35,338 bases of DNA from Patescibacteria group bacterium (GCA_043822345.1 JBDRBW010000022.1:1-35338), one strand, 5' to 3'; positions 1,636 through 34,069 are shown, numbered from the stretch's first letter. A program made the numbers and translations. The notes: generated from the letters alone by a model not told the origin.

Positions 1636-4267
1636 TTTTAATTTGTCCTCTGATTATTTTATCGGCCAACTGGTCTAAAATAACCCGCTGAATCAGCCGT
1701 TTAATCGGCCGCACGCCGTAGTCGGGATCAAAACCATTTTCCACAATATATTTCTTCGCCGCGCTGTTAATAGTAACCTTAATATCCTTCTCCGCCAGCT
1801 TCTGCTTAGTCCTCTCTAGTTGAATATCAACAATCTTCCCGATATCTTTCTTGCGCAAAGAATTAAAGATAATAATATCATCCAACCGATTCAAGAACTC
1901 GGGGCGAAACCTTTCCTTCAACGACTGATGAACCCGCTCCCGAAACTGCTCCTCCTGTTCCCGCTGGCTCTCTTCTTCGCCGTTAGCCAAACCAAAGCCC
2001 AAGCTAGCCATCTCCTTAAAGTAACGACTGCCAACATTGGAGGTTAGAATAATAATAGAATTCTTGAAATTAGCCACCTTGCCCTTACTATCGGTTAAAC
2101 GGCCGTTATCCAGCATCTGTAATAGGATATTAAATACCTCGGGATGCGCCTTCTCCACTTCGTCAAATAAGATTAAGCTGTAAGGCCGATGGCGGACAAT
2201 CTCGGTCAACTGGCCGCCTTCCTCAAAACCAACATAACCGGGCGGCGAACCCACCAAGCGGGAAACGGAATGGCGTTCCATATATTCCGACATATCAATC
2301 CGCACCAGCGCTTTTTCGTCATTAAACATAAACTCCGCCAAGGTCTTGGCTAACTCGGTTTTGCCCACGCCCGTCGGCCCCAAAAACATAAACGAGCCCA
2401 GCGGCTGGTCGTCATCGGATAGGCCGGCGCGGCTGCGCCGCAAGGCGTTGGCGATAACGCCAATCGCCTCTTTTTGACCGACCACCCGCTTTGCCAGCAC
2501 CTCCTCAATACGGGTCAATTTCTCCGCCTCTGTCTCCAGCATCTTAGTAATCGGAATACCGGTCCAATGCGAAACCACCGAGGCCACATCCTCCTCGTCC
2601 ACCACTTCTTTGATAAACTTTTTTCTCTTGCCACTCGTCATCCCGACTCCCTCTGTCATCCCGGGCTTGACCCGGGATCCACTACCTTTCTCTCCCCCAA
2701 AATACTTCTTCTCAAACGCCTGATACTCATTCTCCGCCACCGGCAATTGCCCATAAATCAGCTGGGAAACCTTCTCCAAATCACCCTCCCGCTCGGCAAT
2801 CTCCGCTTCTCTTTTTAAATCATCAATCTTGCGCCGCAAATTATGCAGATTATCAAAGGCGATTTTCTCCGCATGCCATTGGGCGGAAATCTCGTCATTT
2901 TTACTCTTCAGCTCTCCCAGTTGTTTATTTAATTCATCTAAACGATTAACTTTTCCGTGTCCTTCCTTCATCAACGCCGACCGCTCAATCTCCAGCCGCA
3001 TAATCTCTTTTCTTATTTTTTCTATCTCTTGAGGGGTGGTCTCGGTCTCCAGACGCCGCGCCGCCGCCGCCTCATCCATCAAATCCACCGCTTTATCGGG
3101 CAAAAAACGGTCAGTGATATAACGCGCCGACAGATTAACCGCCGCCACTAGCGCCTCATCGCTAATCCGTAGACCATGATGAATCTCATACTTTTCCTTT
3201 AAGCCGCGCAAAATCGCCATCGTATCCTCCAACGACGGCTCATCTACCACAATCGGCTGAAAGCGACGTTCCAAGGCGGCGTCCTTTTCTATATACCGCT
3301 GATATTCCTTAAGTGTAGTAGCGCCAATGGCGTGCAGTTCGCCGCGCGCCAACGAGGGCTTAAGCAAATTAGAAGCATCAATCGCCCCCTCAGCCGCGCC
3401 TGCGCCCACTAGGGTGTGTAATTCGTCAATAAATAAAATAATCTTCCCCGCCGAGTTTTTCACCTCATTAATAAACGCCTTCAACCGATCTTCAAACTCG
3501 CCGCGAAATTTAGTGCCAGCAATTAGTGAACCAATATCCAACATTACCAACTCTCTGTCTTTTAATGTTTCCGGCACGTCGCCAGCCACAATCTTCTGCG
3601 CCAAGCCCTCGGCAATCGCCGTCTTACCAACGCCCGGCTCGCCAATCAACACCGGATTGTTTTTCGTCCGCCGCGAAAGTACCTGTATTACACGGCGCAA
3701 CTCTTCCTCTCTACCAATAACCGGATCCAACTTACTATCCCGCGCCTGCTGAGTAAGATTAACGGCATATTTATCCAGCACCTGCATTTTACTCTCCGGC
3801 ATCTCGTCGGTTACCCGCATTGAACCCCGCAGGTGCGCCAATGTCCGCAATAAATTCTCTCGACGTATGCCAAATTTCGCCAACAAAGCTTGGGCTTCTG
3901 ATTGAATATCAACCATTGCCAACAATAAATGCTCACAGGAAATGAATTCGTCATGCTGAGCTAAGGCAATTTTTGCCGCCCGATCCAACAACATCACAAT
4001 TTCTTGTGAAAGATAAAGCTGACCAATCGCCGAGTTGGCAAAAATCTTTGGTAACCGCTCCAGTTCCAATTGCAATTCTTGGCGCAAATTATCCAAATTA
4101 ACGCCCGACTTGGCCAGCATCGGCTGGACTAGTGATTGGCCATCGCCCAATAAACTATGCAATAAATGAAGCGCCTTAAACTCGCCGTGATGGCGTTGCG
4201 CCGCCAAATCCTGCGCGCTCTGCAAGGCCTCTTGAGCTTTCATTGTAAAACGATGAAAGTTATTCAT
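1580..4267 (-). CDS. clpB: ATP-dependent chaperone ClpB
   Basis: Clp N-domain, NBD1 [13 protein letters not shown], coiled-coil M domain, NBD2 [19 protein letters not shown] and [10 protein letters not shown]. Confidence 0.95.
2636..2681. repeat. REP-like palindrome inserted in-frame in clpB
   Basis: Partial CGTCATCCCGAC plus GTCATCCCGGGCTTGACCCGGGATCCA. Translated as [15 protein letters not shown] after the M domain. Confidence 0.85.
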
Positions 4268-4273
4268 AATCGT

Positions 4274-4300
4274 GTCATCCCGGACTCGATCCGGGATCTA
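4274..4300. repeat. REP-like palindrome just upstream of the clpB start
   Basis: GTCATCCCGGACTCGATCCGGGATCTA, same subtype as 2655-2681 and 17276-17302. Confidence 0.85.
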
Positions 4301-4460: not shown

Positions 4461-4461
4461 C

Positions 4462-5976
4462 TTAGTTAAACCTATTCCTCAAAACTTCCAAAACATAATC
4501 AATCTCTTCTTGGGTAGTAAATTTCCCCAACGAAAAACGGATACTACTCGTCGGCCGATCGTCTCCCCCTGTGTTGCTCGTCATTCTGAGCTTTCGCGAA
4601 GAATCTTTCGCTTGTCGAAGGGCTTCAATTACATGCGACGGCTGGGCCGCCCGCGCCGAACAGGCCGAGACCGTGGAAGCCGCCACCCCCGCCAAATCCA
4701 GTTCAATTATCAAATCCTGCGCCGGCCTCCCCGGAAAATAGATATTCAAATTATTAGGGACCCGTCTCATGTTCGTCATCTCGAGCTTGTCGAGAGATCT
4801 CATCCGCGCCCCTTTCTCATTAAACCAACCATTCACTTCTATATCAGGCACAATTTTCTTCAACTCCTGCCAAAAATAATCCCGTAAACCGCCAATTCTC
4901 TTTACTTCTTCAGTTCGCGCCGCCTCCGCCAGCTCTACCGCCTTACCAAAGCCAACCACCCCTGCCACATTCTCCGTCCCCGCCCGCAGGCCCCACTCCT
5001 GACCACCGCCGGTAATAATAGGATTTAAGATTTTTTTCGGATTTCGCGCGAATAGTGCCCCAACTCCCTTCGGCCCATAAATTTTGTGCGCCGACAAAGT
5101 CATCAAATCAACCCCCAACTCCTCCACATCGCACTTTAGAAATTGGAACGCTTGAACAGCGTCTGTGTGGAAAAGAGGATACATAACGCCGTCATCTCGA
5201 GCCTGTCGCCCGCCCGCCTCGCTATGCAAGGCATTGCGGGCAGGAGAGATCTCAATGATTTGTTTTTTGGACGATGATGAGATTTCTCCACTCCTCCGCC
5301 AGCTGGCGGATTCGGTCGAAATGACACTCTTCTTTTTTACTATTCCATCTCTAAACTCTCCAATCATCCTCCCAATCTCCGCAATCGGCTGTACCACCCC
5401 AATCTCCGAATTCACCATTCCAATAGAAACCAACACTGTCCGCTCATTCAACTCCTCCTTCAACTTCTTCAAACCCACCAACCCTCCTCTGTCCACCGGC
5501 AAATAAACCACCTCCACCCCCCAATTCTCCTCCAAATCCTTACAGGTCGCCAAAACCGAAGAGTGTTCAATCTTAGATGTAATTAAGCGTAGAGGCGCAT
5601 TCGCATGCTGTTTTTCAGAATGTCTCGGAGGCGAGTTTGCTTGGTCCCGCTCCGCGGGAAACTCGCCGAGAGCCAAGCGGCTGGTTTTCGCTGGAAAAAC
5701 CAGACCGCGGTTCTGAAAAATAGCTGCGAATGCGCCTCGGAGCGCCAAATTATTTGCCTCACTCGCCGACCCGGTAAAAATCACCTCATTATATTTGCAA
5801 CCCAACGCCCGCGCTATCTGCTCATGCGCCGTAAACACCGCCCGCGACGCTTCCTGTCCAAAAGAGTGCACCGACCCCGGATTGCCAAAAATTTCACCAC
5901 AATAAGACCGCATCGCCTTTTCCACTTCCTTATCCATCGGCGTTGTCGCCGCATAATCCAAGTAGACACGTTTCAT
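4462..5976 (-). CDS. iscS: Cysteine desulfurase (IscS/NifS family) with four in-frame repeat insertions
   Basis: YLDYAATTP, GNPGSVH, HTDAVQ, SAHKIYGPKG (PLP lysine), RAGTEN and SACS. It is 504 aa versus roughly 380-400 aa typical for the family. Confidence 0.9.
   Translation of the reverse strand: MKRVYLDYAATTPMDKEVEKAMRSYCGEIFGNPGSVHSFGQEASRAVFTAHEQIARALGCKYNEVIFTGSASEANNLALRGAFAAIFQNRGLVFPAKTSRLALGEFPAERDQANSPPRHSEKQHANAPLRLITSKIEHSSVLATCKDLEENWGVEVVYLPVDRGGLVGLKKLKEELNERTVLVSIGMVNSEIGVVQPIAEIGRMIGEFRDGIVKKKSVISTESASWRRSGEISSSSKKQIIEISPARNALHSEAGGRQARDDGVMYPLFHTDAVQAFQFLKCDVEELGVDLMTLSAHKIYGPKGVGALFARNPKKILNPIITGGGQEWGLRAGTENVAGVVGFGKAVELAEAARTEEVKRIGGLRDYFWQELKKIVPDIEVNGWFNEKGARMRSLDKLEMTNMRRVPNNLNIYFPGRPAQDLIIELDLAGVAASTVSACSARAAQPSHVIEALRQAKDSSRKLRMTSNTGGDDRPTSSIRFSLGKFTTQEEIDYVLEVLRNRFN
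4579..4606. repeat. REP-like unit in-frame in iscS
   Basis: CGTCATTCTGAGCTTTCGCGAAGAATCT, translated as DSSRKLRMT. Confidence 0.8.
4774..4803. repeat. REP-like unit in-frame in iscS
   Basis: CGTCATCTCGAGCTTGTCGAGAGATCTCAT, translated as MRSLDKLEMT. Confidence 0.85.
5191..5325. repeat. REP-like doublet (135 bp) in-frame in iscS, with nested palindromes
   Basis: GTCATCTCGA...GTCGAAATGAC. Contains a nested 36 bp unit at 5209-5244 and the perfect palindrome TCCGCCAGCTGGCGGA at 5295-5310. Confidence 0.85.
5592..5738. repeat. Structured multi-stem element, copy A (in-frame in iscS)
   Basis: Arms GAGGCGCATTCGCA...TGCGAATGCGCCTC. Core nearly identical to 30727-30825. Length 147 bp. Confidence 0.85.
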
Positions 5977-7593: not shown

Positions 7594-7685
7594 GTCATCT
7601 CGACCGTGGTGGAGAGATCTCATAAACTTTGCAACGCACAAAGCACTGAGATTTCTCGACTTCGTTTCACTTCGCTCGAAATGAC
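7594..7685. repeat. REP-like inverted doublet in a predicted 5' UTR
   Basis: GTCATCTCGACCGTGGTGGAGAGATCTCAT ... TGAGATTTCTCGACTTCG...CTCGAAATGAC. Confidence 0.85.
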
Positions 7686-7785: not shown

Positions 7786-8295
7786 ATGGATAATCTACTA
7801 TTCAAAACACCCGCTGGTATTCAGTTATCGCCTGAACAGGTGGTTACCGAAATCATCCAGTTTATGCAGGCCGATACCAAACGACCCTACAAAATCATCA
7901 TCGGCACCGATTCTGAAGAAATAGGCAACCTCAGCGCCGACTTTGTAACCGCCATCGTTGTCCACCGCATCGGCAATGGCGGCCGTTATTTTTGGCGCCG
8001 CGCCATCATCGGCAAAATGCATACCTTAAGAAACCGCATCTGGCAGGAAGTGCTTACCTCTCTTGATGTCGCCAAGGACTTTCTGGGCGTTGCTAAGCAA
8101 TTTAACCTACCTCACTTTGACTTTGAAATTCACATTGACGTCGGCGAAAACGGCAAAACTCGCGACATGATTCAGGAATTAGTCGGCGTCATCCGCGCCA
8201 ACAACTTTGAAGCCCGCACCAAGCCCTACAGCTACGCCGCTAGCTCTGTCGCCGATAGGCACAATAATAAACATTCGATACCGTCGTCATCCTGA
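7786..8295 (+). CDS. RNase H-like YkuK family protein
   Basis: IIIGTDS, TAIVVHRIGNGGRYF, EIHIDVGENGKT and KPYSYAASSVADRH. The TGA stop lies inside a REP unit. Confidence 0.85.
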   Translation: MDNLLFKTPAGIQLSPEQVVTEIIQFMQADTKRPYKIIIGTDSEEIGNLSADFVTAIVVHRIGNGGRYFWRRAIIGKMHTLRNRIWQEVLTSLDVAKDFLGVAKQFNLPHFDFEIHIDVGENGKTRDMIQELVGVIRANNFEARTKPYSYAASSVADRHNNKHSIPSSS

Positions 8296-8342
8296 GTGTT
8301 AACGAAGGATCTTTAAAGATTCTTCGCCTCGCTCAGAATGAC
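8285..8342. repeat. REP-like inverted doublet
   Basis: CGTCATCCTGAG...GAAGGATCT-TTAA-AGATTCTTCG...CTCAGAATGAC. Confidence 0.85.
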
Positions 8343-8927: not shown

Positions 8928-11027
8928 ATGAGAAAGAGAAAAATCAAAAGGAGCGAAAAAGAACTGGAGCTGAAAAAGGAAAAAGAAAGCCACGTTTCCG
9001 TAGAAATTAAAAAGAGTGTCCTCGCTGTATTGTTAGTTGGCGCCGCTATCGTCCTGATGCTCGCTAGCTTTAATCAGGCCGGCGTGGTGGGTGGGTTTTT
9101 GTATGAATCACTTTCCGCCGTTTTCGGCATCGGCTACTTCCTCTTGCCACTAGTAGCTTTTATCATCGCCGCCGTCTTTCTGCTCGCTCATGAGATAAAA
9201 TTTCTTAGCCCAACCTTTATCGGCGCCATCGTTTTAATTCTCTCCTCGCTCGGATTTATTGATATCGTCTTCCCCGGCAAAGCCGGTTTCACCGGCAACG
9301 GCTTGGGATTGATAGAGTCCCTGTTCGGCAACATCGCCTCGTTAGTAATAGTAGGCGCCCTTATTATTGGCGCGCTCGTTCTCACACTCAACATCCCTCT
9401 TAAAATTAAACGCAAGCCGAAAAAAGAAAAGCTCGGCGAGGAAGAAATCACTATTAAAGAACCGGAAGAAGGCAAGATTGTGAACAGTGATAAAAAAGAA
9501 GATGCTCTGGAAACAGCCGCTGAAAAAACACTGGCATCAGAATCAGAAAAAGAAAGTTTGTTAGAAAAAATAAAGCGACCTAAATTATGTAACTATCAAC
9601 CACCACCGCTAAGCTTGTTAAAATCGAACATTGAAAAGCCGAGCGCCGGCGACTTGCGGGCCAACGCCAACATCATCAAAAGAACTTTGGATAGTTTTAA
9701 TATCCCCGTTGAAATGAGTGAGGTTAACATCGGCCCTAAAGTTACCCGCTACTCTCTCAAACCAGCGGAGGGTATCAAACTAGCCCGCATCACCGCCCTT
9801 AACTCCGACCTAGCGCTCGCCTTAGCCGCCCATCCCCTACGCATCGAAGCGCCCATTCCCGGCAAATCATTGGTTGGCATCGAGGTGCCCAACAAAACCG
9901 CCGCTATGGTCCGGCTAGGCAGTTTAATGTCCTATCCCGAATTCACCAAGACCGGCCCTGTGAGTTTTGTATTAGGCAGAGATGTCAGCGGCAATCCCAT
10001 CGCCGCCCACATTGATAAAATGCCCCACCTTTTAGTTTGCGGCTCCACCGGATCAGGAAAATCCATCCTCATCCATTCACTTTTAATTTCCCTCCTCTAT
10101 AAAAATTCTCCCGAAACCCTGAAATTAGTATTAATCGACCCCAAACGAGTAGAGCTTTCGATTTATAACGAAATCCCCCACCTTATCGCCCCCGTCGTCA
10201 CCGAAGGCAAAAAAGCAGTCAATGTTTTCCGCTGGGCAATTCAGGAAATGGAAAGACGTTATGACATCCTGCTTAAAGCCGGCGCCAGAGATATCGCCCG
10301 TTATAACAGTAACGCCAAAGGTGAACAGTTACCCTACTTATTACTAGTAGTTGATGAATTAGCTGACTTAATGTCCTCTTATGGCCGCGAAGTAGAGACG
10401 GCTATCGTCCGCCTTGCCCAAATGGCGCGGGCCACCGGCATTCATTTGGTGTTGGCCACTCAACGACCATCGGTTGAAGTTATTACCGGCCTCATTAAGG
10501 CCAACATCACCTCCCGCGTCGCTTTGCAAGTCGCTAGTCAAGTTGACTCCCGCACCATTTTGGATATGGGCGGCGCCGAAAAACTACTCGGCGGTGGTGA
10601 TATGCTTTTCATATCTTCCGAATTTTCCAAACCAAAAAGAATTCAGGGTGCCTTTATTTCCGAAGATGAAGTTGGCAAAGTAACTGACTTTATTCGAGAA
10701 CACAATAAACCTAACGCCGAAAACGATAACGACACCCGTCATCTTGAGCGAAACGAAGTGGAGTCGAAAGATCTCATCAACGACCCACTCAACTTCAACT
10801 CTTTCTCCTCCAACGAAGATGATGATCTCTACGACGAAGCGGTGGAAACCGTCCGCCTGGCCAAAAAGGCCTCTGCTTCGCTCCTCCAGCGCCGCCTTAA
10901 AGTTGGTTACGCCCGCGCCGCCCGCCTCTTGGATTTGATGGAAGAAAACGGCCTGATCGGTCCCGGAGAAGGCGCTAAACCCCGAGAAGTTTTTGATGTT
11001 GGACAAAGTAATTCTGAACTGATATGA
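8928..11027 (+). CDS. ftsK: DNA translocase FtsK/SpoIIIE
   Basis: N-terminal TM segments, RIEAPIPGK, GSTGSGKS, IDPKRVEL, VDELADLM, ATQRPS and gamma domain SASLLQRRLKVGYARAAR. Confidence 0.95.
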   Translation: MRKRKIKRSEKELELKKEKESHVSVEIKKSVLAVLLVGAAIVLMLASFNQAGVVGGFLYESLSAVFGIGYFLLPLVAFIIAAVFLLAHEIKFLSPTFIGAIVLILSSLGFIDIVFPGKAGFTGNGLGLIESLFGNIASLVIVGALIIGALVLTLNIPLKIKRKPKKEKLGEEEITIKEPEEGKIVNSDKKEDALETAAEKTLASESEKESLLEKIKRPKLCNYQPPPLSLLKSNIEKPSAGDLRANANIIKRTLDSFNIPVEMSEVNIGPKVTRYSLKPAEGIKLARITALNSDLALALAAHPLRIEAPIPGKSLVGIEVPNKTAAMVRLGSLMSYPEFTKTGPVSFVLGRDVSGNPIAAHIDKMPHLLVCGSTGSGKSILIHSLLISLLYKNSPETLKLVLIDPKRVELSIYNEIPHLIAPVVTEGKKAVNVFRWAIQEMERRYDILLKAGARDIARYNSNAKGEQLPYLLLVVDELADLMSSYGREVETAIVRLAQMARATGIHLVLATQRPSVEVITGLIKANITSRVALQVASQVDSRTILDMGGAEKLLGGGDMLFISSEFSKPKRIQGAFISEDEVGKVTDFIREHNKPNAENDNDTRHLERNEVESKDLINDPLNFNSFSSNEDDDLYDEAVETVRLAKKASASLLQRRLKVGYARAARLLDLMEENGLIGPGEGAKPREVFDVGQSNSELI
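10737..10777. repeat. REP-like unit in-frame in the ftsK motor-gamma linker
   Basis: CGTCATCTTGAGCGAAACGAAGTGGAGTCGAAAGATCTCAT, translated as RHLERNEVESKDLI. Confidence 0.85.
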
Positions 11028-11042
11028 TAACAGAGATTATTT

Positions 11043-11738
11043 ATGGAACACGCCACCTTCAAGGAATTTCTTCAGGAGTATATCGACATCAAGGGTCTAA
11101 GTTTAAAAAAACTTTCTGATAGCACCGGCGTTCCCGAAAGATATATTGAGTCCCTGTTAGAAAGTAACTATGACGCCCTGCCTCCCGCTCCCTATATTCG
11201 CGGCTACATCCTCAAACTCTCCACTGTTTTAGATTTTGATAAAGAAGAAATGTGGCGTCTCTATAAAAAAGAAAGCGGTTATCACTCATCTGGCGCCTTT
11301 GATAAACTGCCCAGCAACCGCTTTGCTATTAAAAAATTAAACAAAAAACTAGCCGTCTACGTTGGTCTCGGTCTCATACTAATCATCTATCTTGGTTTAA
11401 ACTTCAATAAATTATTGGGGGCTCCGGAATTGGAAATTACCTATCCTTTGTCCGCCAATCTCATCGTCCAAGAGCCACTGGTTTCTATTGAGGGATTAAC
11501 TGACGCCGGCAATAAAGTAACCATCAATGGTGAAGAATTGTTTGTTGATAAAGGCGGCCGCTTCCAAAAAGAATATGCTCTCGACCCCGGCCTGAATACT
11601 CTGGATATAGTCGCCAGCAAATTTCTAGGCAAAGAAATAACCACCACTAAAAAAATTATCTATCAGAAACCAATAATCGAAAAAGTCGAAGAAAATATTA
11701 ACGTCATTCCCGACGAGATCGGGAATCCAACACAATAA
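11043..11738 (+). CDS. RodZ-like protein (Xre-type HTH, TM helix, Ig-like domain)
   Basis: LSLKKLSDSTGVPERYIESL...LPPAPYIRGYI, one TM helix and a beta-rich C-terminus. Lies between ftsK and recA. Confidence 0.75.
   Translation: MEHATFKEFLQEYIDIKGLSLKKLSDSTGVPERYIESLLESNYDALPPAPYIRGYILKLSTVLDFDKEEMWRLYKKESGYHSSGAFDKLPSNRFAIKKLNKKLAVYVGLGLILIIYLGLNFNKLLGAPELEITYPLSANLIVQEPLVSIEGLTDAGNKVTINGEELFVDKGGRFQKEYALDPGLNTLDIVASKFLGKEITTTKKIIYQKPIIEKVEENINVIPDEIGNPTQ
11702..11729. repeat. REP-like unit forming the C-terminus of the RodZ-like protein
   Basis: CGTCATTCCCGACGAGATCGGGAATCCA, translated as VIPDEIGNP. Confidence 0.8.
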
Positions 11739-14773: not shown

Positions 14774-15658
14774 TTATTTTTTTGCCAACTTATAAAAATT
14801 CCTAAAAAGTTCCGCTACTAAAATCGGTCCGGTGCCGCCGGGGGTAGGAGTATAAAACTCTAGATGCTGGATGCTGGATGCTGGATTCTGGATTAGGTCT
14901 GGTGGATAACCGAAATCAATTACGCCCGCGCCGTCTTTCAGCCAATCTGGATTAATTAAATTAGCTTGTCCTACTCCGCTAATCACCAAATCCGCATCTT
15001 TTAATTCCTCCTCAAGATTTTTCGTTTCTATATCAACTTCCTTAATTGAAAATTGAAAATTGAAAATTGAAAATTGGGAAAGCCACTTCACGATTGGCTT
15101 TCCAACTAAAAACCCCTTCGCCCCCACCACCGCCACAATCAACCCATCGCCGTCGTCATTCTGCCTGCCCGCCACAGCTTTAGCGTCGGCGGGAGCGGAG
15201 GCCGCAATAAGCGGCCGTAGCCGAAGAATCTCATCATCTAACTTCTGCTCAATAATATATTTAATAACATCCCCCACTACCATTACCACCGGTGCTTCAA
15301 CGCCAGCTTCGCCTGTTAAATTATCAACGTCTTTTTGAGAATCTAATTTTAATAAAACTTTATCCCGATCAATTTTTTTCGGTAGAGGTAGTTGCACTAT
15401 TATCCCTCCAACTCGCTCATCGTCACTCAATCTCTCCGCGACGCTTTCTAGTTCTTTTTGTCTAATATTTATATCTAACTCGTATACTTTAAAATCTACC
15501 CCCAACTCCTCCGCCACTCGCTGTTTTTGTTTAATAAAAGACAACGAAGCCGGATCGTCTCCTACTAAAACAACCACCAAACTCTTGTTGGGCTTGGGTT
15601 GTTTTTTTAATCCCTCAACAATCCCCTGCGCAATTTTTCTGCCATCTACCTTGATCAT
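14774..15658 (-). CDS. folD: Bifunctional methylenetetrahydrofolate dehydrogenase/cyclohydrolase with repeat insertions
   Basis: VDGRKIA, LVGDDPAS, GIIVQLPLP, KDVD, LVGKP, VIDFG and TPTPGGTGP. Adjacent to glyA. Confidence 0.9.
   Translation of the reverse strand: MIKVDGRKIAQGIVEGLKKQPKPNKSLVVVLVGDDPASLSFIKQKQRVAEELGVDFKVYELDINIRQKELESVAERLSDDERVGGIIVQLPLPKKIDRDKVLLKLDSQKDVDNLTGEAGVEAPVVMVVGDVIKYIIEQKLDDEILRLRPLIAASAPADAKAVAGRQNDDGDGLIVAVVGAKGFLVGKPIVKWLSQFSIFNFQFSIKEVDIETKNLEEELKDADLVISGVGQANLINPDWLKDGAGVIDFGYPPDLIQNPASSIQHLEFYTPTPGGTGPILVAELFRNFYKLAKK
14863..14894. repeat. Heptamer tandem repeat (GATGCTG) in folD
   Basis: GATGCTG x3 plus GATTCTG and GATT, encoding IQNPASSIQHL. Confidence 0.8.
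15044..15076. repeat. Heptamer tandem repeat (AATTGAA x4.7) in folD
   Basis: Perfect tandem array encoding QFSIFNFQFSI. Confidence 0.85.
15154..15234. repeat. REP-like unit in-frame in folD with a nested 30 bp unit
   Basis: CGTCATTCTG[CCTGCCCGCC...GGCGGG]AGCGGAGGCCGC...CGAAGAATCTCAT. Confidence 0.85.
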
Positions 15659-15687: not shown

Positions 15688-15704
15688 AAAATTAAGCAAT
15701 AAAG

Positions 15705-17126: not shown

Positions 17127-17259
17127 CTTTGAATTACGAAACGTCCCATTTGTCATTTCGAGCGTAACGCAGTGAAGTCGAGAAATCTCATAAACTATAC
17201 ATTATTTCAAATCACTGAGATTCTTCGACAAGCTCAGAATGACGTTTCGTAATTCAAAG
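17127..17259. mobile_element. MITE-like composite: REP doublet within 19 bp perfect outer inverted repeats
   Basis: CTTTGAATTACGAAACGTC / GACGTTTCGTAATTCAAAG. 17214-17259 is identical over 46 bp to 34755-34800. Confidence 0.75.
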
Positions 17260-17275
17260 ATATATTACACTTTTT

Positions 17276-17356
17276 GTCATCCCCGACTCGATCGGGGATC
17301 CATTACGTTATTGTATTAGATCCCGGACAGTCGCCTACGGCGACTTCCGGGATGAC
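17276..17356. repeat. REP-like inverted doublet (GTCATCCC subtype)
   Basis: GTCATCCCCGACTCGATCGGGGATCCA ... AGATCCCGGA...TCCGGGATGAC. Confidence 0.85.
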
Positions 17357-18429: not shown

Positions 18430-18520
18430 GTCATTTCGAGCTTGTCGAGAAATCTCATCGTTCATATTTAATCAATGATTACGAGATCCCTCGACTTCGC
18501 TCTGCTTCGCTCGGGATGAC
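18430..18520. repeat. REP-like inverted doublet overlapping the dedA 3' end
   Basis: GTCATTTCGAGCTTGTCGAGAAATCTCAT ... GAGATCCCTCGAC...CTCGGGATGAC, supplying the C-terminus VSSRAKQSEVEGSRNH. Confidence 0.85.
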
Positions 18521-22537: not shown

Positions 22538-22540
22538 ATG

Positions 22541-22612
22541 TGCCGCGAGGGTGAATCGAACACCCGACGCTTTGCTCTTCAAGCAAACGCTCTACCACTG
22601 AGCTATCGCGGC
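22541..22612 (-). tRNA. tRNA-Phe(GAA)
   Basis: GCCGCGA acceptor stem and anticodon arm TTTGC-TTGAAGA-GCAAA. CCA not encoded. Confidence 0.93.
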
Positions 22613-22652: not shown

Positions 22653-22680
22653 TAAAAATACCAACAACACAAATAAAAAT

Positions 22681-22854
22681 AAAAAGACACCGTAAGGTTG
22701 TTTTGAAAAATGTTTCGGAAATCGCTTGAGCTTGGTGTCCCGCCTACTTTTAAAATTAAACGATGGCGGGACTCAAGCGATTGAGAACAAGAAGCGGCTC
22801 ACCGCTGGAGTGAGCCGACTTCGGTTTTTCAAAACAATCTTACAGTGTCTTTTT
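22681..22854. repeat. Structured multi-stem element, copy D
   Basis: 30 bp arms AAAAAGACACCGTAAGGTTGTTTTGAAAAA / TTTTTCAAAACAATCTTACAGTGTCTTTTT. Core TGTTTCGGA...CTTGGT...GAGAACAAG...CGCTGGA. Confidence 0.85.
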
Positions 22855-25083: not shown

Positions 25084-26943
25084 CTACGAGGGTGTGTTTG
25101 GACAACCAACCATTCCCATAACATCGATAAAACTCTGACAATCAGACGGAGGACTGTTTGGTGGTGGATTATACGGATTCCTACAACTATTGTATGCAAG
25201 AAACATATCAGAGCAATAATAATAATCATTCGTAGAAGCAATGCAATTAGGTTCCCATGTACACACTAAAGAATCTGCCGACTGATAAGCACCACAACTT
25301 CTCTCGCCAAGCGATGCGCATATATTCCTAATAATTGAAGGTTGCCCAGGTTTTGCTTTGCAACAACCGGTTCTTTCTGGGGGTGTGTTTGAACAACCAA
25401 CCATATCTATAGCATCTTTATAAAGCTGACAATCACGTGGAAGACCCATTGGTGGTGGATCATCACCAATATACCTACAATCACTGTAGGCATTAAGCAT
25501 TCCTTGGCAATAGGGCGTAGGATCGCCGGTTTCATAAACAGGACAACTAGGCAACCAAGGAGTAATAATACCTCCTGCCTTCTTACAAGAGTTTTCTTTT
25601 ATATCGTGCATGTATATACCTTTATACAAACAGCATACTTCTTTAACTTCACCTCCATTTCCTGTCCCTGTTCCTGTGCCACTAGCAGGACTACAAATTC
25701 CTCGTAGTTCCCCATTTATGCCCAAATATGTATTAAAAATACATAAACCTGGAGGAGCTTGGTCGCATGAAGCTTTTTGCTCTTTAATTGTTGATCCAGA
25801 ATTATAACCCGTTTCAGGATCATTACAAGCATTCTTCTCCATTATTAATCCTCCACCTCCTCCGCCACCACCGCTACCCGTCCCTACCGGACTAGAACAA
25901 GAATACGCCGCCAGAGAACTATCTGTAACCCCCCATCCTACTATGCCAGGAAGAATGCTAGAACAAATACCGGTTACTACCTCACCCCCTACCGCAAACG
26001 GATCATCTAAAAAGAGATCGGAAAAAAGATCCGACCAATCTCCATCGTCACCAAAAATCTCCGCGCAGATATCACAAGTACCGGTGAGCGCGCAGTCACC
26101 AACCGGGCAAGTGCCAGTGAGCGCGCAGTCGTTAATAAACGGCACCCACTGGCAATGGTTGCCACAAACCGCCTCCGCTGTGCCATCGTCATTAAACAGA
26201 ATATCTCCGGGAGGGTCGCATTCTTCACCAGGACCAACACCGTAGTCACCACAACTACCACCGACATAAAAACACTCTCCACATCGATCGTCACCGGTTT
26301 CCGCACAATCAAAACCTATTCCACATCCATGAGGAACGGCGGAAGAATCACAATTCTCGCCCAAATCATTGACACCGTTGCCGCAAGTTGATGAAGGCGG
26401 AGTTACTGGCGGAATTACTGGCGGAGTCGTGCCGCCACAACCACAAGAGGGCGCACTGCCTCCTGGAAATTCTAGAGAACCAGGTGGATAACCCCAACTA
26501 ACAACACAGCCATAGATGGCATTTGCCGCCTCACAAGCCCCCACATCCGACCCAAAAGCCACGCAAAATGTCATATCACAACCACCGCCGCCACAATAAG
26601 TGCTTAGCAAAGGAACATAACCCCCGGTGGGATTAAAACTACAACAAAGCGGATATTCAGCCGCTTCACAGGCCGCTGAATCAGGATAGACCGGCGGCGG
26701 AATCCCACCTCGACACCCTTCATAATTATCCCAATAACAAACACCTGAAGGGTCGTTATGACAAGCTTCATCATTTGTATACTGCGCACAATTCGCCACT
26801 GGTACCTGCGCCCCCACCTGAACACCAACATCGGTACCGGCCACAAACCATATAATTAATCCGACCATAATAACGGCAAAGACGACCCAAAATAAAGTTT
26901 GGTTTGTCGACATGCCATTGCAACATGTTTTTTTCTTTTTCAT
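25084..26943 (-). CDS. Membrane-anchored Cys/Gly/Pro-rich surface protein
   Basis: 619 aa with an N-terminal TM helix, CGNGVNDLGENCD and CGDYGVGPGEECD repeats, and a duplicated C-terminal Cys module. Confidence 0.8.
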   Translation of the reverse strand: MKKKKTCCNGMSTNQTLFWVVFAVIMVGLIIWFVAGTDVGVQVGAQVPVANCAQYTNDEACHNDPSGVCYWDNYEGCRGGIPPPVYPDSAACEAAEYPLCCSFNPTGGYVPLLSTYCGGGGCDMTFCVAFGSDVGACEAANAIYGCVVSWGYPPGSLEFPGGSAPSCGCGGTTPPVIPPVTPPSSTCGNGVNDLGENCDSSAVPHGCGIGFDCAETGDDRCGECFYVGGSCGDYGVGPGEECDPPGDILFNDDGTAEAVCGNHCQWVPFINDCALTGTCPVGDCALTGTCDICAEIFGDDGDWSDLFSDLFLDDPFAVGGEVVTGICSSILPGIVGWGVTDSSLAAYSCSSPVGTGSGGGGGGGGLIMEKNACNDPETGYNSGSTIKEQKASCDQAPPGLCIFNTYLGINGELRGICSPASGTGTGTGNGGEVKEVCCLYKGIYMHDIKENSCKKAGGIITPWLPSCPVYETGDPTPYCQGMLNAYSDCRYIGDDPPPMGLPRDCQLYKDAIDMVGCSNTPPERTGCCKAKPGQPSIIRNICASLGERSCGAYQSADSLVCTWEPNCIASTNDYYYCSDMFLAYNSCRNPYNPPPNSPPSDCQSFIDVMGMVGCPNTPS

Positions 26944-27072: not shown

Positions 27073-27550
27073 CGTCATCTCGACCGAAGTGGAGAGATCT
27101 CATTAATGTGGACGCATTGAGATCTTTCGACTCCGCTTCGCTTCGCTCAAGATGACAAGATGACAGAAGTAGTCATCTCGACCGAAGTGGAGAGATCTCA
27201 TTAATTCCAATCATCAGATAAATCCTTAAATTCGGGATTATTTTTCTTAATTAGCTCTATCTTTTTCTTTCTTGACCACCTTTTAAGTTGTTTTTCTCTA
27301 GAAATCGCATCATACGGATTATCAAAAACTTCATAGTGTATAACCTTATTTAAATTATATTTTTCAGTAAAACCTTTAACTTGCTTTTGTTTGTGCTGCC
27401 AAGCTCTGTTAGAAATATCGTTAGTAACTCCTATATAGGATGTCGTATTCCACTTGTTCATCATTATGTAAACATAAAGATTTTTGCTCATAGTGATGTT
27501 GATGAGATTTCTCGACTTCACTCACTTCGTTCGTTTCGCTCGAAATGACG
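27073..27550. mobile_element. Candidate REP-flanked GIY-YIG cassette
   Basis: REP units at 27073-27103, 27118-27156, 27172-27201 and 27502-27550. The last two face each other around the nuclease gene. Confidence 0.65.
27201..27491 (-). CDS. Small stand-alone GIY-YIG nuclease family protein
   Basis: LYVYIM...YIGVTND...R..QH...GFTEKY...YEVF...AISREKQLKRWSR..K..LI...NP. Start set at MSKNLY. Confidence 0.92.
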   Translation of the reverse strand: MSKNLYVYIMMNKWNTTSYIGVTNDISNRAWQHKQKQVKGFTEKYNLNKVIHYEVFDNPYDAISREKQLKRWSRKKKIELIKKNNPEFKDLSDDWN

Positions 27551-28334: not shown

Positions 28335-28889
28335 ATGTTAGAGGACGAGTATAAAATAATAAAACGCGCCCAACGAGGTGATCAGGAGTATTTCGGCCAA
28401 TTGTACGACCACTATACTCCCCAAATCTACCGCTTCGTCTTCTTTAAGGTCGGTCACCAACAGGAGGCCGAAGATCTGACGCACGAGATATTTCTCAACG
28501 CCTGGAAGAATATTGATAATTTCACCTATCGAGGACACCCCTTTTCCAGTTGGCTGTACCAAATAGCCCGCAATCGCATTATTGATTACTACCGCGCGAA
28601 AAAAGATACCATTTCCCTAGATGATGTAAAAGAGATAATTCCCGAAACCGGCAATAGTATAGAAGAACGGCTGGACATCGGCTATGATATGGAAAAAATC
28701 AAGATGGCGATGCGACAGCTAAACGGAGACCAGCAGAACGTTATCATTCTTCGTTTTATTGAAGAACTATCCCCCGCCGAAATCGCCAAGGCAATGGATA
28801 AAAGCGAGGGCGCCGTCCGCCTCATCCAACACCGAGCAATTAAAAATCTTCGCGTCATTCTGAACACAAGTGAAGAATCTTATGAATAA
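28335..28889 (+). CDS. ECF RNA polymerase sigma factor
   Basis: Region 2 AEDLTHEIF...FSSWLYQIARNRIIDYYR and region 4 LSPAEIAKAMDKSEGAVRLIQHRA. Confidence 0.93.
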   Translation: MLEDEYKIIKRAQRGDQEYFGQLYDHYTPQIYRFVFFKVGHQQEAEDLTHEIFLNAWKNIDNFTYRGHPFSSWLYQIARNRIIDYYRAKKDTISLDDVKEIIPETGNSIEERLDIGYDMEKIKMAMRQLNGDQQNVIILRFIEELSPAEIAKAMDKSEGAVRLIQHRAIKNLRVILNTSEESYE

Positions 28890-30582: not shown

Positions 30583-30700
30583 CCTTTAATTCTATCACAA
30601 AATCTATATTTTATTCCCACTAAAAAGAGCGAAACCCACGCTGTTCTATAATAATAGATAAAAAAATAAGTAACGCGGAGTTGCAGAGAAAAATGTTAAA

Positions 30701-30851
30701 ACAACGGTAGTGGATATAGTTCGAAGGAATGTCTCGGAGGCGAATTTGCTTGGTCCCGAGCTTGCGAGGGAAATTCGCCGAGAGCCAAGCGGCTGATTTT
30801 CGCCGGAAAAATCAGACCGCGGTTCCTGAGAGCTATATCCACTACCGTTGT
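30701..30851. repeat. Structured multi-stem element, copy B
   Basis: Perfect 19 bp arms ACAACGGTAGTGGATATAG / CTATATCCACTACCGTTGT. Core matches copy A. Lies 7 nt after the rny stop. Confidence 0.85.
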
Positions 30852-30858
30852 CATATTC

Positions 30859-32382: not shown

Positions 32383-32458
32383 AATTTAAGTTGTGAACTA
32401 TACAGTTCATTGGTTATTATTAATATGACTACCAATATTATAGTAAAATTAATTTAAA

Positions 32459-34069
32459 ATGTCAAAGCCCCACAAACAAACAATTACTTTATTGATTCTA
32501 GACGGCTGGGGCATTGGCGCCAACAACCCCACCAACCCCATCCACATCGCCCAGCCCAAAAACATCCAACAGATAAAAAACCATTATCTAGGAGGTAATT
32601 TACAGGCCTCCGGTATCGCCGTCGGCCTACCATGGAATGAAGAAGGCAATAGCGAGGTCGGCCACCTCACCATCGGCGCCGGTAAAACTATTTATCAAAA
32701 CTACCCCCGCATCACCCTTGCTATCCAAAGTGGTGAGTTCGCTAAAAATAAAATTTTTCTTGATGCCTTTGAGCATGCCAAAAAAAATAATTCTTCTTTG
32801 CACCTAATTGGCTTATTATCCGAAGGCAACGTTCACGCTTCTCTAACGCATCTTACTGCTCTTATTGATTTAGCAAAAAAACACCAGGTTGCCCAAATTA
32901 AACTTGACCTGATTAGCGACGGCCGCGACAGCCCTCCGCAATCGGTTTTACAACTCCTAGAAAAACTTAAATCTTCAGGCGTCATCCTGAGCGCAAGCGA
33001 AGGACCTTCGAAAGATTCTTCGGTTCCACCTCAGAATGACAGTAGCATAACGATCGCCTCCCTCTCCGGCCGCTACTTTGCTATGGATCGCGACCGCCAC
33101 TGGGACCGCGCCCAAGAATACTACAATACCCTTTTGGGTAAAAAAGAATCTGACGGCAATATTACCAAACACATAAAAACTCAATACGAACACGGTCTTA
33201 ATGACCAATACCTCGAACCTATCAGTATCGACCCCAAAAACAACGCTATTAAGAACAATGACGCCGTCATCTTTTTCAACTTCCGCGAGGACCGAATGCG
33301 CCAGCTAACAGCGATCTTCCTTAACCCTGACTTTAAAGAATTTGCCACCGCGCCGATCAAAAATCTCCACATCGCCACCATGGTCCAGTATTCCGACCAA
33401 TTTAAAACCAATGTCGCCTTTCCTCCGGAAAAAATTGCTCTGCCACTCGGCAAGGTGTTAGCCGACAATAATAAATTACAATTAAGAGTCGCTGAGACAG
33501 AAAAGTATGCTCACGTAACCTACTTCTTCAACGGCCTTAAAGATAAGCCGGCAAAAAATGAGTACCGCATTCTCATCCCCTCTAAAAACATCGTTCGCCA
33601 CGAAGAACATCCAGAAATGATGGCCGCCGAAATTACCGACCGAGTAATACAAGCTATTGAAGAGGGCGAGATGGACTTTATTCTAGCCAACCTCGCCAAC
33701 CCCGATATGATTGCCCATACCGGCGACTTCAACGCCACCGTTACCGCTATTAAAGTGGTTGATGAACAGGTCGGCAAAATTCTCCAAGCCACCATCGCCC
33801 GCGACGCCGTTTTAATTATCACCTCCGATCACGGCAACGCCGAAAGAATGCTAGATCCGCTTACCGGCCACATAGAGACCAAACACGACACCAGTCCCGT
33901 CCCCTTTTATTTAGTCGGTAAGCGATTTGAAAGAAAATCGGGCACCGAATGGCACCCGGCTATGCCAGTTGGCGTCCTCTCTGACATCGCCCCCACCATT
34001 CTTGACTTAATGAAAATCCCCAAACCCGCCGAAATGACCGGCGAAAGTTTATTAAAACGGCTTTTATAA
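32459..34069 (+). CDS. gpmI: 2,3-bisphosphoglycerate-independent phosphoglycerate mutase
   Basis: ILDGWG, GNSEVGH, DGRD, GRYFAMDRD, AETEKYAHVTYFFNG and TSDHGNAE. Confidence 0.96.
   Translation: MSKPHKQTITLLILDGWGIGANNPTNPIHIAQPKNIQQIKNHYLGGNLQASGIAVGLPWNEEGNSEVGHLTIGAGKTIYQNYPRITLAIQSGEFAKNKIFLDAFEHAKKNNSSLHLIGLLSEGNVHASLTHLTALIDLAKKHQVAQIKLDLISDGRDSPPQSVLQLLEKLKSSGVILSASEGPSKDSSVPPQNDSSITIASLSGRYFAMDRDRHWDRAQEYYNTLLGKKESDGNITKHIKTQYEHGLNDQYLEPISIDPKNNAIKNNDAVIFFNFREDRMRQLTAIFLNPDFKEFATAPIKNLHIATMVQYSDQFKTNVAFPPEKIALPLGKVLADNNKLQLRVAETEKYAHVTYFFNGLKDKPAKNEYRILIPSKNIVRHEEHPEMMAAEITDRVIQAIEEGEMDFILANLANPDMIAHTGDFNATVTAIKVVDEQVGKILQATIARDAVLIITSDHGNAERMLDPLTGHIETKHDTSPVPFYLVGKRFERKSGTEWHPAMPVGVLSDIAPTILDLMKIPKPAEMTGESLLKRLL
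32981..33040. repeat. REP-like doublet (60 bp) in-frame in gpmI
   Basis: GTCATCCTGAGCGCAAGCGAAGGACCT...AGATTCTTCG...CTCAGAATGAC, translated as VILSASEGPSKDSSVPPQND. Confidence 0.88.

Follow-up and report, generated by a model that had tools for sequence, protein, structure and literature searches.

The window analysed here, 35,338 nucleotides in length, is one entire contig of a 520 kb genome that is 77% complete and assembled in 27 contigs. The named relatives of its encoded proteins are Patescibacteria, and the host is a tiny groundwater bacterium. By a strict count the window holds 32 units of a short palindromic repeat (REP), both between genes and inside them, together with an element of a second repeat family. 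The genes and repeats are listed below, with strand where assigned.

751..862: inverted REP dimer, intergenic
1580..4267, minus strand: clpB, 895 aa (Pfam Clp_N, AAA, AAA_lid_9, AAA_2, ClpB_D2-small)
2637..2679, plus strand: REP unit in clpB, its opposite-strand reading giving ClpB aa 530-544 (15 residues); the unit proper is 2655-2679 (CCCGGG type, tail CCA), with a partial duplicate ahead of it
4462..5976, minus strand: IscS/NifS-type cysteine desulfurase, 504 aa (Pfam Aminotran_5 in three stretches)
4580..4605, plus strand: REP unit in iscS, IscS aa 458-466 (DSSRKLRMT)
4775..4799, plus strand: REP unit in iscS, IscS aa 393-401 (RSLDKLEMT)
5191..5325: inverted REP dimer in iscS (units 5191-5251 plus, 5281-5325 minus), IscS aa 218-262, both units with nested GC hairpins in the loop
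5592..5738: element of the second repeat family in iscS, IscS aa 85-129
7594..7685: inverted REP dimer, intergenic
7786-8295: YkuK-like gene (PF04308)
8286..8342: inverted REP dimer, units separated by a 6-nt spacer; the first unit ends the YkuK-like gene (three final codons plus stop)
8928..11027, plus strand: ftsK, 699 aa (Pfam FtsK_alpha, FtsK_SpoIIIE, FtsK_gamma)
10738..10773, plus strand: REP unit in ftsK, read as FtsK aa 604-616 RHLERNEVESKDL
11043-11738: gene for a RodZ-like protein (HTH_25)
11703..11727, plus strand: REP unit (TCCCGA type, tail CCA), C-terminal VIPDEIGNP of the RodZ-like protein (aa 221-229 of 231)
14774..15658, minus strand: folD, 294 aa (Pfam THF_DHG_CYH, THF_DHG_CYH_C)
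15155..15234, plus strand: long-loop REP unit in folD with two nested GC hairpins, FolD aa 142-168
17152..17356: two neighbouring inverted REP dimers, intergenic (17152-17243 and 17276-17356)
18485..18520, minus strand: REP unit in a DedA/VTT gene, aa 208-220 of 223 (VSSRAKQSEVEGS)
27074..27197: three-unit REP cluster, intergenic
28335-28889: sigma-70 factor gene
28854..28879, plus strand: REP unit at the 3' end of the sigma-70 factor gene, VILNTSEES (the protein ends VILNTSEESYE)
32459..34069, plus strand: gpmI, 536 aa (Pfam Metalloenzyme, iPGM_N)
32981..33040: inverted REP dimer in gpmI (GTCAT...ATGAC), exactly 60 nt, GpmI aa 175-194 VILSASEGPSKDSSVPPQND
34135..34275: three-unit REP cluster, intergenic, two units long-loop
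34603..34784: single REP unit and inverted dimer, between short ORFs
35244..35307: inverted REP dimer, 31 nt before the contig end

An earlier note on this DNA had described repeat-derived peptides in ClpB, IscS (three REP sites), FtsK, FolD and GpmI (60 nt); every peptide and coordinate it named was found, and Pfam agrees with the identities it gave the host genes. It had also assigned the C-termini of the RodZ-like, DedA and YkuK proteins to repeats, which holds for the first two, while in YkuK the repeat supplies only the last three residues and the stop. The sigma-70 factor C-terminal unit and the fourth IscS insert, from the second family, did not appear in it.

The REP unit follows the hairpin consensus (C/T)GTC-AT-YYY-GA-RC...loop...GY-GA-RRR-AT-C. 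By strict counting the genome contains 273 units, whereas the reversed genome yields 5 and five shuffles 6-18, and the exact motif GTCATYCTGARCN{3,7}GAAGRATC has 82 matches in the genome and 0 with the backwards-read control. GTC was part of the search seed and AT...AT was likewise imposed; the base preceding GTC was left free, and its counts across 297 units are T 128, C 113, A 33 and G 23. Stem positions 1-5 were fixed by the search and are uninformative on covariation. At the free positions 6/7, 72 of 83 25-nt units carry G·A/A·G and 8 carry G-C; at position 8, 79/83 are paired, 49 as G-C and 30 as A-T, which leaves only 4 unpaired. A nine-position stem is thereby supported, and hairpin covariation shown, at positions free of the search. 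The folding energy of short units is -6.5 kcal/mol and rises to -3.2 after shuffling.

Most units (172/297) are 24-27 nt long. Loops measure 3-5 nt in the modal 25-27-nt units, while about a third of the units exceed this, with nested hairpins in loops that can reach 60 nt and beyond. The commonest subtype combines the tandem G·A/A·G stem mismatch with a CTT/CTC tail; ATC is followed by TCAT, TTTA or TTTT in the commoner subtypes, and the CCCGG/TCCCG subtype (units at 2655, 11703 and 17276) has the tail CCA. Half of the units are arranged as inverted dimers with tags outward, mostly 55-110 nt long (range 55-135 nt); unit pairs genome-wide comprise 69 such dimers, 4 with tags inward and 8 in the same orientation. 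Around the 69 dimers, target-site duplications number 0 at k=3, 4 and 6 and 1 at k=5, and flanking direct repeats are at or below chance for k=2-6. The transposase profiles PF01797, PF01548, PF07282, PF01609 and PF00665 have 0 matches in the 77%-complete genome, and throughout the phylum the Y1 transposase PF01797 is unlinked to motif abundance, occurring in 8/18 of the richest genomes and 189/401 overall. We also saw no presence/absence polymorphism of REP units. Present-day mobility is unsupported, since neither a mobilising enzyme nor target-site duplications nor such polymorphism was found.

Within genes, taken here as ORFs of at least 100 aa chosen greedily rather than from gene-caller output, 106 strict units occupy 79 sites inside 50 of 458 ORFs genome-wide, a load of ~11%, or about one in nine. 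ORFs cover 84.7% of the genome and hold these 106 units; the intervening 15.3% holds 109, so that the density per kb is ~5.7x lower within ORFs. Pfam families were assigned at E<=1e-8 to 39/44 host ORFs outside the window and 5/5 inside, and hosts include aminoacyl-tRNA synthetases, SecA, GyrA, IF-2, LepA, NusA, LigA, PolA and ribosomal protein L25. No Pfam family was assigned to five host ORFs, one of them with 8 units, and these five may be spurious. Separately, 8 of the 54 contig ends lie <=300 nt from a REP unit, and because of this we take the repeats to break the assembly.

Intragenic units are read in both orientations and in all six frames (same-strand 28/27/2, opposite-strand 23/11/17). 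The tag-to-tag length of dimers is a multiple of three in 15/23 intragenic against 3/25 intergenic cases (Fisher p 0.00024). Eight of the 23 intragenic dimers depart from this rule and single units show no such enrichment (12/59); the true insert edges therefore do not always coincide with tag and tail as delimited. The YCTGA-type unit is unused in same-strand frame 2 (2/57 same-strand), and stop-bearing variants are unseen in the stop frame. The repeat peptides are hydrophilic, with a mean Kyte-Doolittle hydropathy of -0.95 against -0.15 for the proteome, and are enriched in S, R, H and D and depleted in Y, W, C, F and L.

Among the genes compared with orthologues, IscS at 504 aa exceeds relatives of mostly ~375-430 aa. 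The 15-aa addition at aa 458-466 is found in 0/12 orthologues; at aa 393-401, 9/12 orthologues lack any counterpart of the 17-aa addition and three carry short unrelated inserts; and the ~52-aa addition at aa 218-262 is absent from 11/12, the remaining one (L048) having an unrelated insert there. The second-family element has a conserved core of ~100 nt, a covarying outer stem of 20-25 bp and a folding z of ~ -9. K298 and C439, which we take to be the PLP lysine and the catalytic cysteine, are invariant columns in the alignment. The AlphaFold model of IscS matches solved IscS/Nfs1/NifS structures at TM 0.82-0.90 (target-normalised), and pLDDT falls below 50 at 460-470, 387-402, 222-262 and, in the second-family insert, 93-126.

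A 14-aa addition in ClpB is found in 0/13 orthologues (68-78% identity), a net 17-aa addition in GpmI in 0/11, an addition in L25 in 0/11 and three in enolase in 0/3. In FolD, the ~30-aa addition separates the catalytic and NAD-binding domains and is absent in 10/12 orthologues. In L064, a different family-level relative, FolD carries a REP unit of its own in the matching alignment columns, and FolD of L066 has another insert at this inter-domain site; the site was hit independently in the second lineage, L064, a recurrence at a permissive position. FtsK is the weak case: its peptide sits in the linker ahead of the gamma domain (630-689). The length of this linker varies across 13/13 orthologues; it is ~10 aa longer than in the closest and shorter than in most others, with no clear net gain relative to most. 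The RodZ-like tail likewise varies across 12/12 orthologues. Overall, the frame is kept at 13/13 aligned sites, with the two flanks of each insert matching a single orthologue in one frame, and 12/13 sites in seven genes (ClpB, IscS, FolD, GpmI, FtsK, L25 and enolase) are lineage-specific in-frame additions, FtsK being the exception.

In the AlphaFold models, DSSP assigns coil or poorly supported helix to each of the four IscS inserts and to that of GpmI (pLDDT <50 at 180-193), which lie between confident elements; the GpmI model was built from a shallow alignment and is also of low pLDDT outside the insert (51-83, 326-363 and 461-478).

The repeats are likely to be REP-type hairpins of the CGTC-tagged superfamily that have expanded in one lineage and are kept in frame within genes as extra loops. 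By expanding in this single lineage the family would have reached 263 or more units in 0.52 Mb, with copies landing anywhere in the genome. A copy within a gene would persist only where it adds a length divisible by three, where the frame in use is free of stops, and where the site is a loop, an inter-domain linker or a terminus. The tolerated cargo would be 9-50 hydrophilic, probably disordered residues; the ribosome would read through the units, leaving about one ORF in nine with repeat-coded loops. The inserts are probably translated and may be neutral; the repeat DNA may be selfish and might still move.

Several further claims of the earlier note bear on this account. The use of both orientations and several frames is confirmed, as is the spread of repeats through many genes. 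Its idea of in-frame, Rickettsia-like insertion at tolerant sites accords with the mod-3 dimers, the intragenic depletion and the orthologue gaps at 12/13 sites. That catalytic motifs remain intact is partly borne out, by full-length Pfam domains, the invariant IscS residues and many invariant GpmI residues. As for its proposed surface loops, the IscS and GpmI inserts do fall in low-confidence coil between confident elements, and they may be exposed to solvent.

Could intragenic copies instead be retained for a function, as mRNA hairpins that pause ribosomes at domain boundaries or set half-life, or as flexible linkers, including bridges that join two enzymes in a single ORF? Some inserts lie exactly between Pfam domains (in FolD, ahead of FtsK gamma, and between Arginase and Urocanase at C17:5859-8489), the FolD site recurs in L064, and the G·A-mismatch hairpin is kept across many phyla, which hints at a conserved partner. 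However, inter-domain placement is equally predicted by a tolerance filter, the lower density within ORFs is expected for mostly harmful insertions, and only 2/33 sampled units in five other motif-rich genomes lie deep within open frames. Moreover, the closest orthologues do not have the inserts, and the proteins therefore work without them. We consider retention for function unlikely.

Less likely still is the removal or skipping of the hairpins before the protein is complete, whether the RNA is cut and religated, the ribosome bypasses the segment or the protein is spliced, leaving a mature product of normal length. Removal at the RNA level was already raised in the earlier note, and it is helped by stable hairpins that bring the insert edges together, as in the GpmI 60-mer (RNA MFE -20.7 kcal/mol), and by the strong folding of the second-family element. 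Removal before translation, however, creates no need for a length divisible by three or a stop-free frame, whereas the mod-3 excess of intragenic dimers, frame-keeping at all aligned sites and the avoidance of the stop frame by stop-bearing variants all point to such a need. Besides 5 tRNAs, the window has no Rfam match, and known inteins exceed the 9-50 aa inserts in length, which counts against protein splicing.

An artefact, whether mis-assembly at repeats, a chimeric bin or decaying pseudogenes of a degenerating genome, might be suspected from the incomplete, 27-contig assembly and the contig ends next to units, but is highly improbable given that both flanks of each insert match one orthologue in one frame, that the FtsK unit and others are crossed, with 0-1 differences, by contigs assembled independently from the runs of other studies, and that host ORFs are full-length with complete Pfam domains and invariant residues. 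Many of the host families are usually single-copy and essential, and the genome cannot hold all of them as pseudogenes.

In-frame retention of REP-type hairpins, the reading we prefer, has precedents. CGTC-tagged REPs, as described in a survey (Di Nocera, De Gregorio, Rocco 2013, PMC3733652), have the tag CGTC, often TGTC, a stem of 8-9 bp with first pairs A-T and T-A, a loop of 4-5 nt and an unpaired CCA tail; one inverted dimer type predominates with direct pairs negligible, intragenic copies occur and a dedicated transposase is not known. The present units share with these the YGTC tag, the AT-first stem, the predominance of inverted dimers, the presence within genes and the lack of a dedicated transposase; the CCA tail is shared by the CCCGG/TCCCG subtype. 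They fit the superfamily, which includes Rickettsia RPE-4/-6 and Neisseria dRS3, and are therefore of a known kind, an additional member. They differ in the mismatch and CTT/CTC tail of the commonest subtype, and in loops that extend to 60 nt or beyond and enclose nested GC hairpins. The survey places CGTC repeats in 5 phyla, mostly Alphaproteobacteria, and the text examined makes no mention of Patescibacteria (PMC3733652). The intragenic load looks far higher here. The host phylum and this load are the unusual points.

Like Rickettsia palindromic elements (RPEs), the units enter unrelated housekeeping genes in frame without destroying them. The link is closer than analogy, as RPE-4 and RPE-6 are assigned to CGTC families in the survey sections examined (PMC3733652). 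RPE-4/-6/-7 are described as enriched in ATGAC, which on the other strand reads GTCAT, the start of every unit here, and RPE insertion hot spots common to several lineages are discussed in the same account (PMC3767692, in part); the link consists of this motif and the published assignment only. Classical RPEs measure 100-150 bp (PMC3767692), in contrast to units here of mostly 25-27 nt and dimers of 55-135 nt, and all six frames are in use here.

GTAG REPs and REPINs likewise form short, imperfect hairpins that frequently occur as inverted pairs, lie mainly outside genes near gene 3' ends and lack a target-site duplication; the tag here is GTC(AT)/YGTC, and the PF01797 tyrosine transposase of REP/REPIN-RAYT systems was not found in the genome. 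MITEs (Correia/NEMIS, ERIC, RUP, Nezha) are also small non-autonomous repeats with inverted ends, and in-frame fusion with host ORFs is possible (PMC10969869). Here, unlike in MITEs, there is no target-site duplication, the ends form hairpins instead of transposase-derived terminal repeats, and PF01548, PF07282, PF01609 and PF00665 were not found in this genome.

The genome of R. conorii is ~1.27 Mb. In that species 44 RPE insertions in genes are given in a review (PMC10969869), against 79 sites in 50 ORFs here, in a genome less than half the size. Dozens of hairpins sit in frame within essential genes, as in Rickettsia but more densely, where they seemingly form extra floppy loops.

Repeat finding and pattern listing bring out one dominant repeat family in this genome, a short hairpin (REP) unit that reads (C/T)GTC, AT-YYY-GA-RC, loop, GY-GA-RRR-AT, C and a short tail. 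In a first census 163 of 297 units were 25-27 nt long; the others have longer loops, which often contain nested G+C hairpins (e.g. 5191-5251 and 15155-15234). The stems fall into three or more subtypes: YCTGARC/GYGAAGR; YTCGAGC/GTCGAGAR, after which comes TCAT; and CCCGG or TCCCG, after which comes CCA. The strict caller, the tighter of our unit-finding procedures and the source of all counts unless stated, finds 273 units genome-wide (263 without nested calls) against 5 in the reversed genome and 6-18 in five shuffles; units cover 1.6% of the genome. Two earlier, looser hairpin callers gave 33-57 matches in shuffles. Because the strict caller skips degenerate units, such as those at 32981-33008, 5191-5251 and 15155-15234, its counts are lower bounds. 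The exact motif GTCATYCTGARCN{3,7}GAAGRATC has 82 matches, against none in a backwards-read control.

At stem positions left free by the search, 72 of the 83 25-nt units carry a tandem G·A/A·G mismatch and 8 carry G-C pairs, while the next stem pair is G-C in 49, A-T in 30 and a non-pair in 4. Judged from sequence, the changes at free positions are compensatory and preserve the hairpin. Half of the units lie in inverted dimers (two units facing opposite ways) whose tags point outward; there are 69 of these, against 4 with inward tags and 8 direct pairs, and spacers of 7, 21 and 29-30 nt are favoured. No target-site duplication was found flanking the dimers.

The reading that we hold to be very probable is that these REP hairpins were inserted in frame into genes, survived at tolerant sites and are read as loops of the encoded proteins. 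The earlier note had described palindromic repeats translated in frame inside housekeeping proteins and likened them to Rickettsia palindromic elements (RPEs); our analysis confirms that observation and supports the interpretation. The peptides it named were all in their places, and Pfam bears out the identities of the host genes in the window:

1580-4267, minus strand, ClpB
4462-5976, minus strand, IscS
8928-11027, plus strand, FtsK
14774-15658, minus strand, FolD
32459-34069, plus strand, GpmI

Orthologous loci were fetched from up to 30 relatives and their proteins aligned. The alignments revealed in-frame additions in GpmI, ClpB, IscS and FolD and, outside the window, in ribosomal protein L25 and enolase, whereas FtsK, also named in the note, has no clear net insertion. 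GpmI gains a net 17 aa at a 60-nt dimer, an addition seen in 0 of 11 orthologues (the nearest 61-65% identical), and ClpB gains 14 aa seen in 0 of 13 (68-78% identity). The three REP sites of IscS add about 52, 17 and 15 aa; nothing is present there in 11, 9 and 12 of 12 orthologues, respectively, and the rest have short unrelated inserts. A fourth IscS insert, at aa 85-129 and absent from the earlier account, derives from a different repeat. FolD has ~30 aa added between its two domains, absent in 10 of 12 orthologues. L25 carries a 41-aa dimer insert (0 of 11 orthologues) and enolase three inserts (0 of 3). The FtsK unit sits in the linker before the gamma domain, whose length varies in every relative and is here ~10 aa longer than in the closest orthologue and shorter than in most; FtsK would thus be better described as holding repeat-derived sequence in a linker than as a clear net insertion. 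The folD frame also holds two heptamer tandem repeats, AATTGAA x4.7 (15044-15076) and GATGCTG x4.4 (14863-14893), the first of which lies at a second length-variable spot of FolD and is covered very deeply by a large number of unrelated metagenome contigs.

Units also shape protein ends. As had been proposed, a unit supplies the last residues of the RodZ-like protein, the tail of which is variable in 12 of 12 orthologues; the same proposal for YkuK holds only for three codons plus the stop. A unit that had escaped notice (28854-28879) also forms the end of a sigma-70 factor.

Relatives from other families of the same order carry REP units of their own. The FolD of G026 (locus L064), one of the two orthologues that do have sequence at the window's insert site, has one of a different subtype at the same alignment columns as the window FolD and a second near its N-terminus (L064:1846-1893 and 2266-2289), and the IscS of G030 has one in frame (L048:1499-1523). 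Such units, one of them at the same FolD inter-domain site, point to recurrent survival at permissive sites. Many IscS homologues hold different inserts at the same columns; a regular-expression screen found REP-like peptide signatures in 3 of 119 other cysteine desulfurases, 2 in reversed-sequence controls and 4 in the window IscS. The latter forms a singleton cluster in a collection of 5.8 billion proteins, with the next match 50% identical, and its named relatives are labelled Patescibacteria, Wolfebacteria, Minisyncoccota and Giovannonibacteria; the host is accordingly placed in the Patescibacteria (candidate phyla radiation).

The lengths and frames of the units suggest how they are expressed. 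Of 23 intragenic dimers, 15 have a tag-to-tag length that is a multiple of 3; between genes, the count is 3 of 25 (Fisher p 0.00024). Eight intragenic dimers depart from this rule and single units show no such enrichment, so the true insert ends are not always those assumed. The use of both orientations and several frames, already recognised, extends to all six frames, with 28, 27 and 2 units read on the same strand and 23, 11 and 17 on the opposite strand; in the frame with only 2 units, the commonest subtype contains TGA. The encoded peptides are hydrophilic, with a mean hydropathy of -0.95 (proteome, -0.15); Ser, Arg, His and Asp are over-represented among their residues, and aromatics, Cys and Leu are scarce. 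Excision of the hairpins from the RNA would free both their length and their stop content, which fits poorly with the dimer mod-3 bias. We infer that ribosomes would instead read the inserts through.

AlphaFold2 models were built with alignments of the fetched orthologues. The IscS model has a mean pLDDT of 73.5 and falls below 50 at 28-35, 93-126, 222-262, 322-334, 387-402 and 460-470; four of these six segments are the four inserts, and 322-334 we take to be the mobile loop of the enzyme family. Against solved IscS, NifS and Nfs1 chains of 359-403 residues the model reaches target-normalised TM scores of 0.82-0.90, and the extra 100 residues accordingly fall outside the fold. For GpmI the mean pLDDT is 71.3, with weak prediction at the insert (180-193) and at three other stretches. 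On the favoured reading the inserts would lie at the protein surface.

The phenomenon extends over the whole genome. A greedy, non-overlapping set of 458 ORFs of >=100 aa takes up 84.7% of the genome. Within it, 50 ORFs hold 106 strict units, at 79 sites, that are over 25 codons away from both ORF ends; 109 further units fall between ORFs, 25 near ORF starts and 23 near ORF ends. Unit density per kb is ~5.7-fold lower inside ORFs than between them, and ~11% of ORFs >=100 aa carry units. From a looser list of 52 hosts we removed three apparent false unit calls (C1:115-1968, C15:302-3748 and C27:7186-7941, on other contigs of the assembly) and the five in the window, and scanned the remaining 44 with Pfam; 39 have a family at E<=1e-8. 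Named by Pfam domain, the hosts in translation are PheS, the Met-, Leu- and Cys-tRNA synthetases, an Ile/Val-type and a class II synthetase, IF-2, LepA and ribosomal protein L25, making six aminoacyl-tRNA synthetases among the host ORFs. DNA and RNA handling is represented by GyrA, LigA, PolA, NusA, ParB, MnmA, TsaD, a CCA-adding-type enzyme and TatD; envelope and secretion by SecA, two Mur ligases, alanine racemase, three glycosyltransferases, a type IV pilus ATPase and prepilin peptidase; and other functions by GrpE, enolase, asparagine synthase and further families.

The 701-aa ORF at C2:4735-6840 (L081) has eight REP units and no Pfam family; it may be a genuine protein that repeats have largely remodelled, or else a repeat cluster may have created the ORF. 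In the 876-aa ORF at C17:5859-8489 (L110), an arginase-family domain (aa 3-267) is fused to a complete urocanase (aa 327-864). Its linker is almost entirely a REP dimer (aa 274-310), and the repeat may therefore have welded the arginase and urocanase genes together; among 30 relatives, none matched the urocanase half.

A second repeat family has a ~100-nt conserved core with two inner hairpins, closed by a 20-25 bp outer stem whose sequence differs among the eight copies while its complementarity is kept:

window, 30696-30856
window, 5592-5738, read in frame as IscS aa 85-129
C27:16512-16646
C8:54410-54547
C9:40647-40754
C24:2065-2164
C17:10803-10909
C16:13828-13940

Its RNA folds have z scores of -8.8 and -9.8. 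Rfam recognises nothing in the window besides 5 tRNAs, and the second family has no match there at E<=1. The 99-nt core was found in 0 of 300 other phylum genomes, save for one weak 35-nt match, and the family was undetected in the IscS inserts of relatives. Other window repeats include a near-identical 31-nt perfect hairpin at 14196-14226 and 34097-34127, 90% complementary between sites, after the stops of two plus-strand genes (13082-14188 and gpmI), which resembles a terminator-type element common to the two genes and separate from the REP family. Next to the tRNA cluster at 22466-22612 are a 67-nt direct repeat (75% identical; 15701-15767 and 22677-22743) and a 33-nt inverted repeat (22678-22710/22825-22857). 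Within the 619-aa ORF at 25084-26943, an 83-nt duplication (78% identical, 291 nt apart; 25090-25172 and 25381-25463) suggests a repeated protein module.

The 35,338-nt window makes up the entire contig C22 of an assembly of 520,449 nt in 27 contigs that is 77.5% complete and has ~43% G+C. The host genome is roughly 0.6-0.7 Mb; sampled genomes of the same phylum span 0.4-2.1 Mb. A REP unit is found no more than 300 nt from eight of the 54 contig ends (e.g. window 35244-35307, C1:86-111, C3:123-147, C14:144-169 and C26:111-136). The assembly is probably broken up by REP units and likely lacks some of their copies. The sequence occurs in 5 DNA runs (groundwater and biofilm metagenomes from 3 studies), with 24-71% of sampled words in each; none of the sequencing runs searched was an RNA run holding it. 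Short Logan contigs aligned to the window (minimum likeness 88) gave no clean case of insert presence/absence polymorphism; the joints they contain mostly link different repeat copies or come from other organisms.

The closest described elements are the CGTC-tagged REPs. As described by Di Nocera and co-workers (PMC3733652), these have a CGTC or TGTC tag, an 8-9 bp stem starting A-T, T-A, a loop of 4-5 nt and a 3-nt tail that is mostly CCA; one inverted dimer predominates, intragenic copies code for 20-30 residues, there is no dedicated transposase, and the members include Neisseria dRS3 and R. conorii RPE-6 and RPE-4. Passages of the R. japonica genome paper (PMC3767692) give ATGAC as enriched in RPE-4/-6/-7, the reverse complement of the GTCAT that opens every unit here. 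On the features tested the present units fit the CGTC-tagged REPs, and the negative transposase search described below agrees with that account. Compared with the families' textual descriptions, what sets them apart is the subtype with the G·A mismatch, loops that are long and nested, the host phylum and the load; as to the last, a 2024 review (PMC10969869) regards the frequency of RPE insertions in R. conorii genes, 44 in number, as unusually high. The elements fit an extreme new case within the CGTC-tagged REP superfamily. Intragenic palindromic repeats in CPR/Patescibacteria were not described in any of the literature text searched, and the listed matches to 12-mers of the unit were all primers in unrelated work.

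Outside the host genome the motif is scattered. It is absent from 14 of 16 same-family genomes and has one match in each of the other 2, yet occurs in 94 of 401 phylum genomes (control, none), of which the host is the richest (82 in 0.52 Mb), followed by one with 54 in 1.0 Mb. At least 120 motif stretches occur across prokaryotes (one genome per species), the matches listed including Nitrospirota, Chloroflexota, Acidobacteriota, Bacteroidota, Firmicutes, Verrucomicrobiota, Planctomycetes, Proteobacteria, Saccharibacteria, Gracilibacteria and others. The motif is thus old or widely exchanged. At the first places listed, a non-random sample, the units deep in open frames number 2 of 33 in five other motif-rich phylum genomes and 23 of 74 in the host (p 0.006). 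The burst, above all its intragenic load, is special to the host lineage.

No matches to the transposase families Y1/RAYT, IS110, TnpB, DDE_Tnp_1 and rve were found in the 77.5%-complete genome. Y1 transposases occur in 189 of the 401 phylum genomes and in only 8 of the 18 with at least 12 motif matches, so motif load shows no association with Y1. Several phylum Y1 (IS200/IS605-type) matches sit in open frames of 200-320 aa, against 140-170 aa for the best matches. The 25-nt G·A hairpin recurs in almost identical form in Patescibacteria, Chloroflexota, Acidobacteriota, Bacteroidota, Nitrospirota, Firmicutes and others, and no transposase tracks it. A far bolder proposal, which we regard as improbable, is that this hairpin is copied by a universal host process (e.g. 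hairpin-primed template switching at the replication fork) or a conserved hairpin-binding enzyme, and is a main engine of protein-length change in this ultra-small genome, through loops in one ORF in nine and gene fusions such as arginase-urocanase, with some intragenic copies kept for mRNA or folding control.

Until now, palindromic repeats in frame were an oddity known from Rickettsia and a small number of other bacteria. On the favoured reading of in-frame insertion at tolerant sites, the CGTC superfamily has gone beyond this in a candidate phyla radiation bacterium, hitting L25, six synthetases, SecA, GyrA and IF-2. The question of how CGTC-type repeats spread without a transposase is sharpened by their occurrence in nearly a quarter of the phylum genomes and in many phyla, with no Y1 link. 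For annotation, repeat-coded segments lengthen proteins, seed spurious ORFs and break domain matches, IscS appearing as three Pfam pieces. Overall, the genome offers a natural experiment of dozens of insertions of 9-50 residues in well-studied enzymes, each marking a site tolerant of a disordered loop, with a survival filter that is quantifiable through the mod-3 and stop-codon biases.
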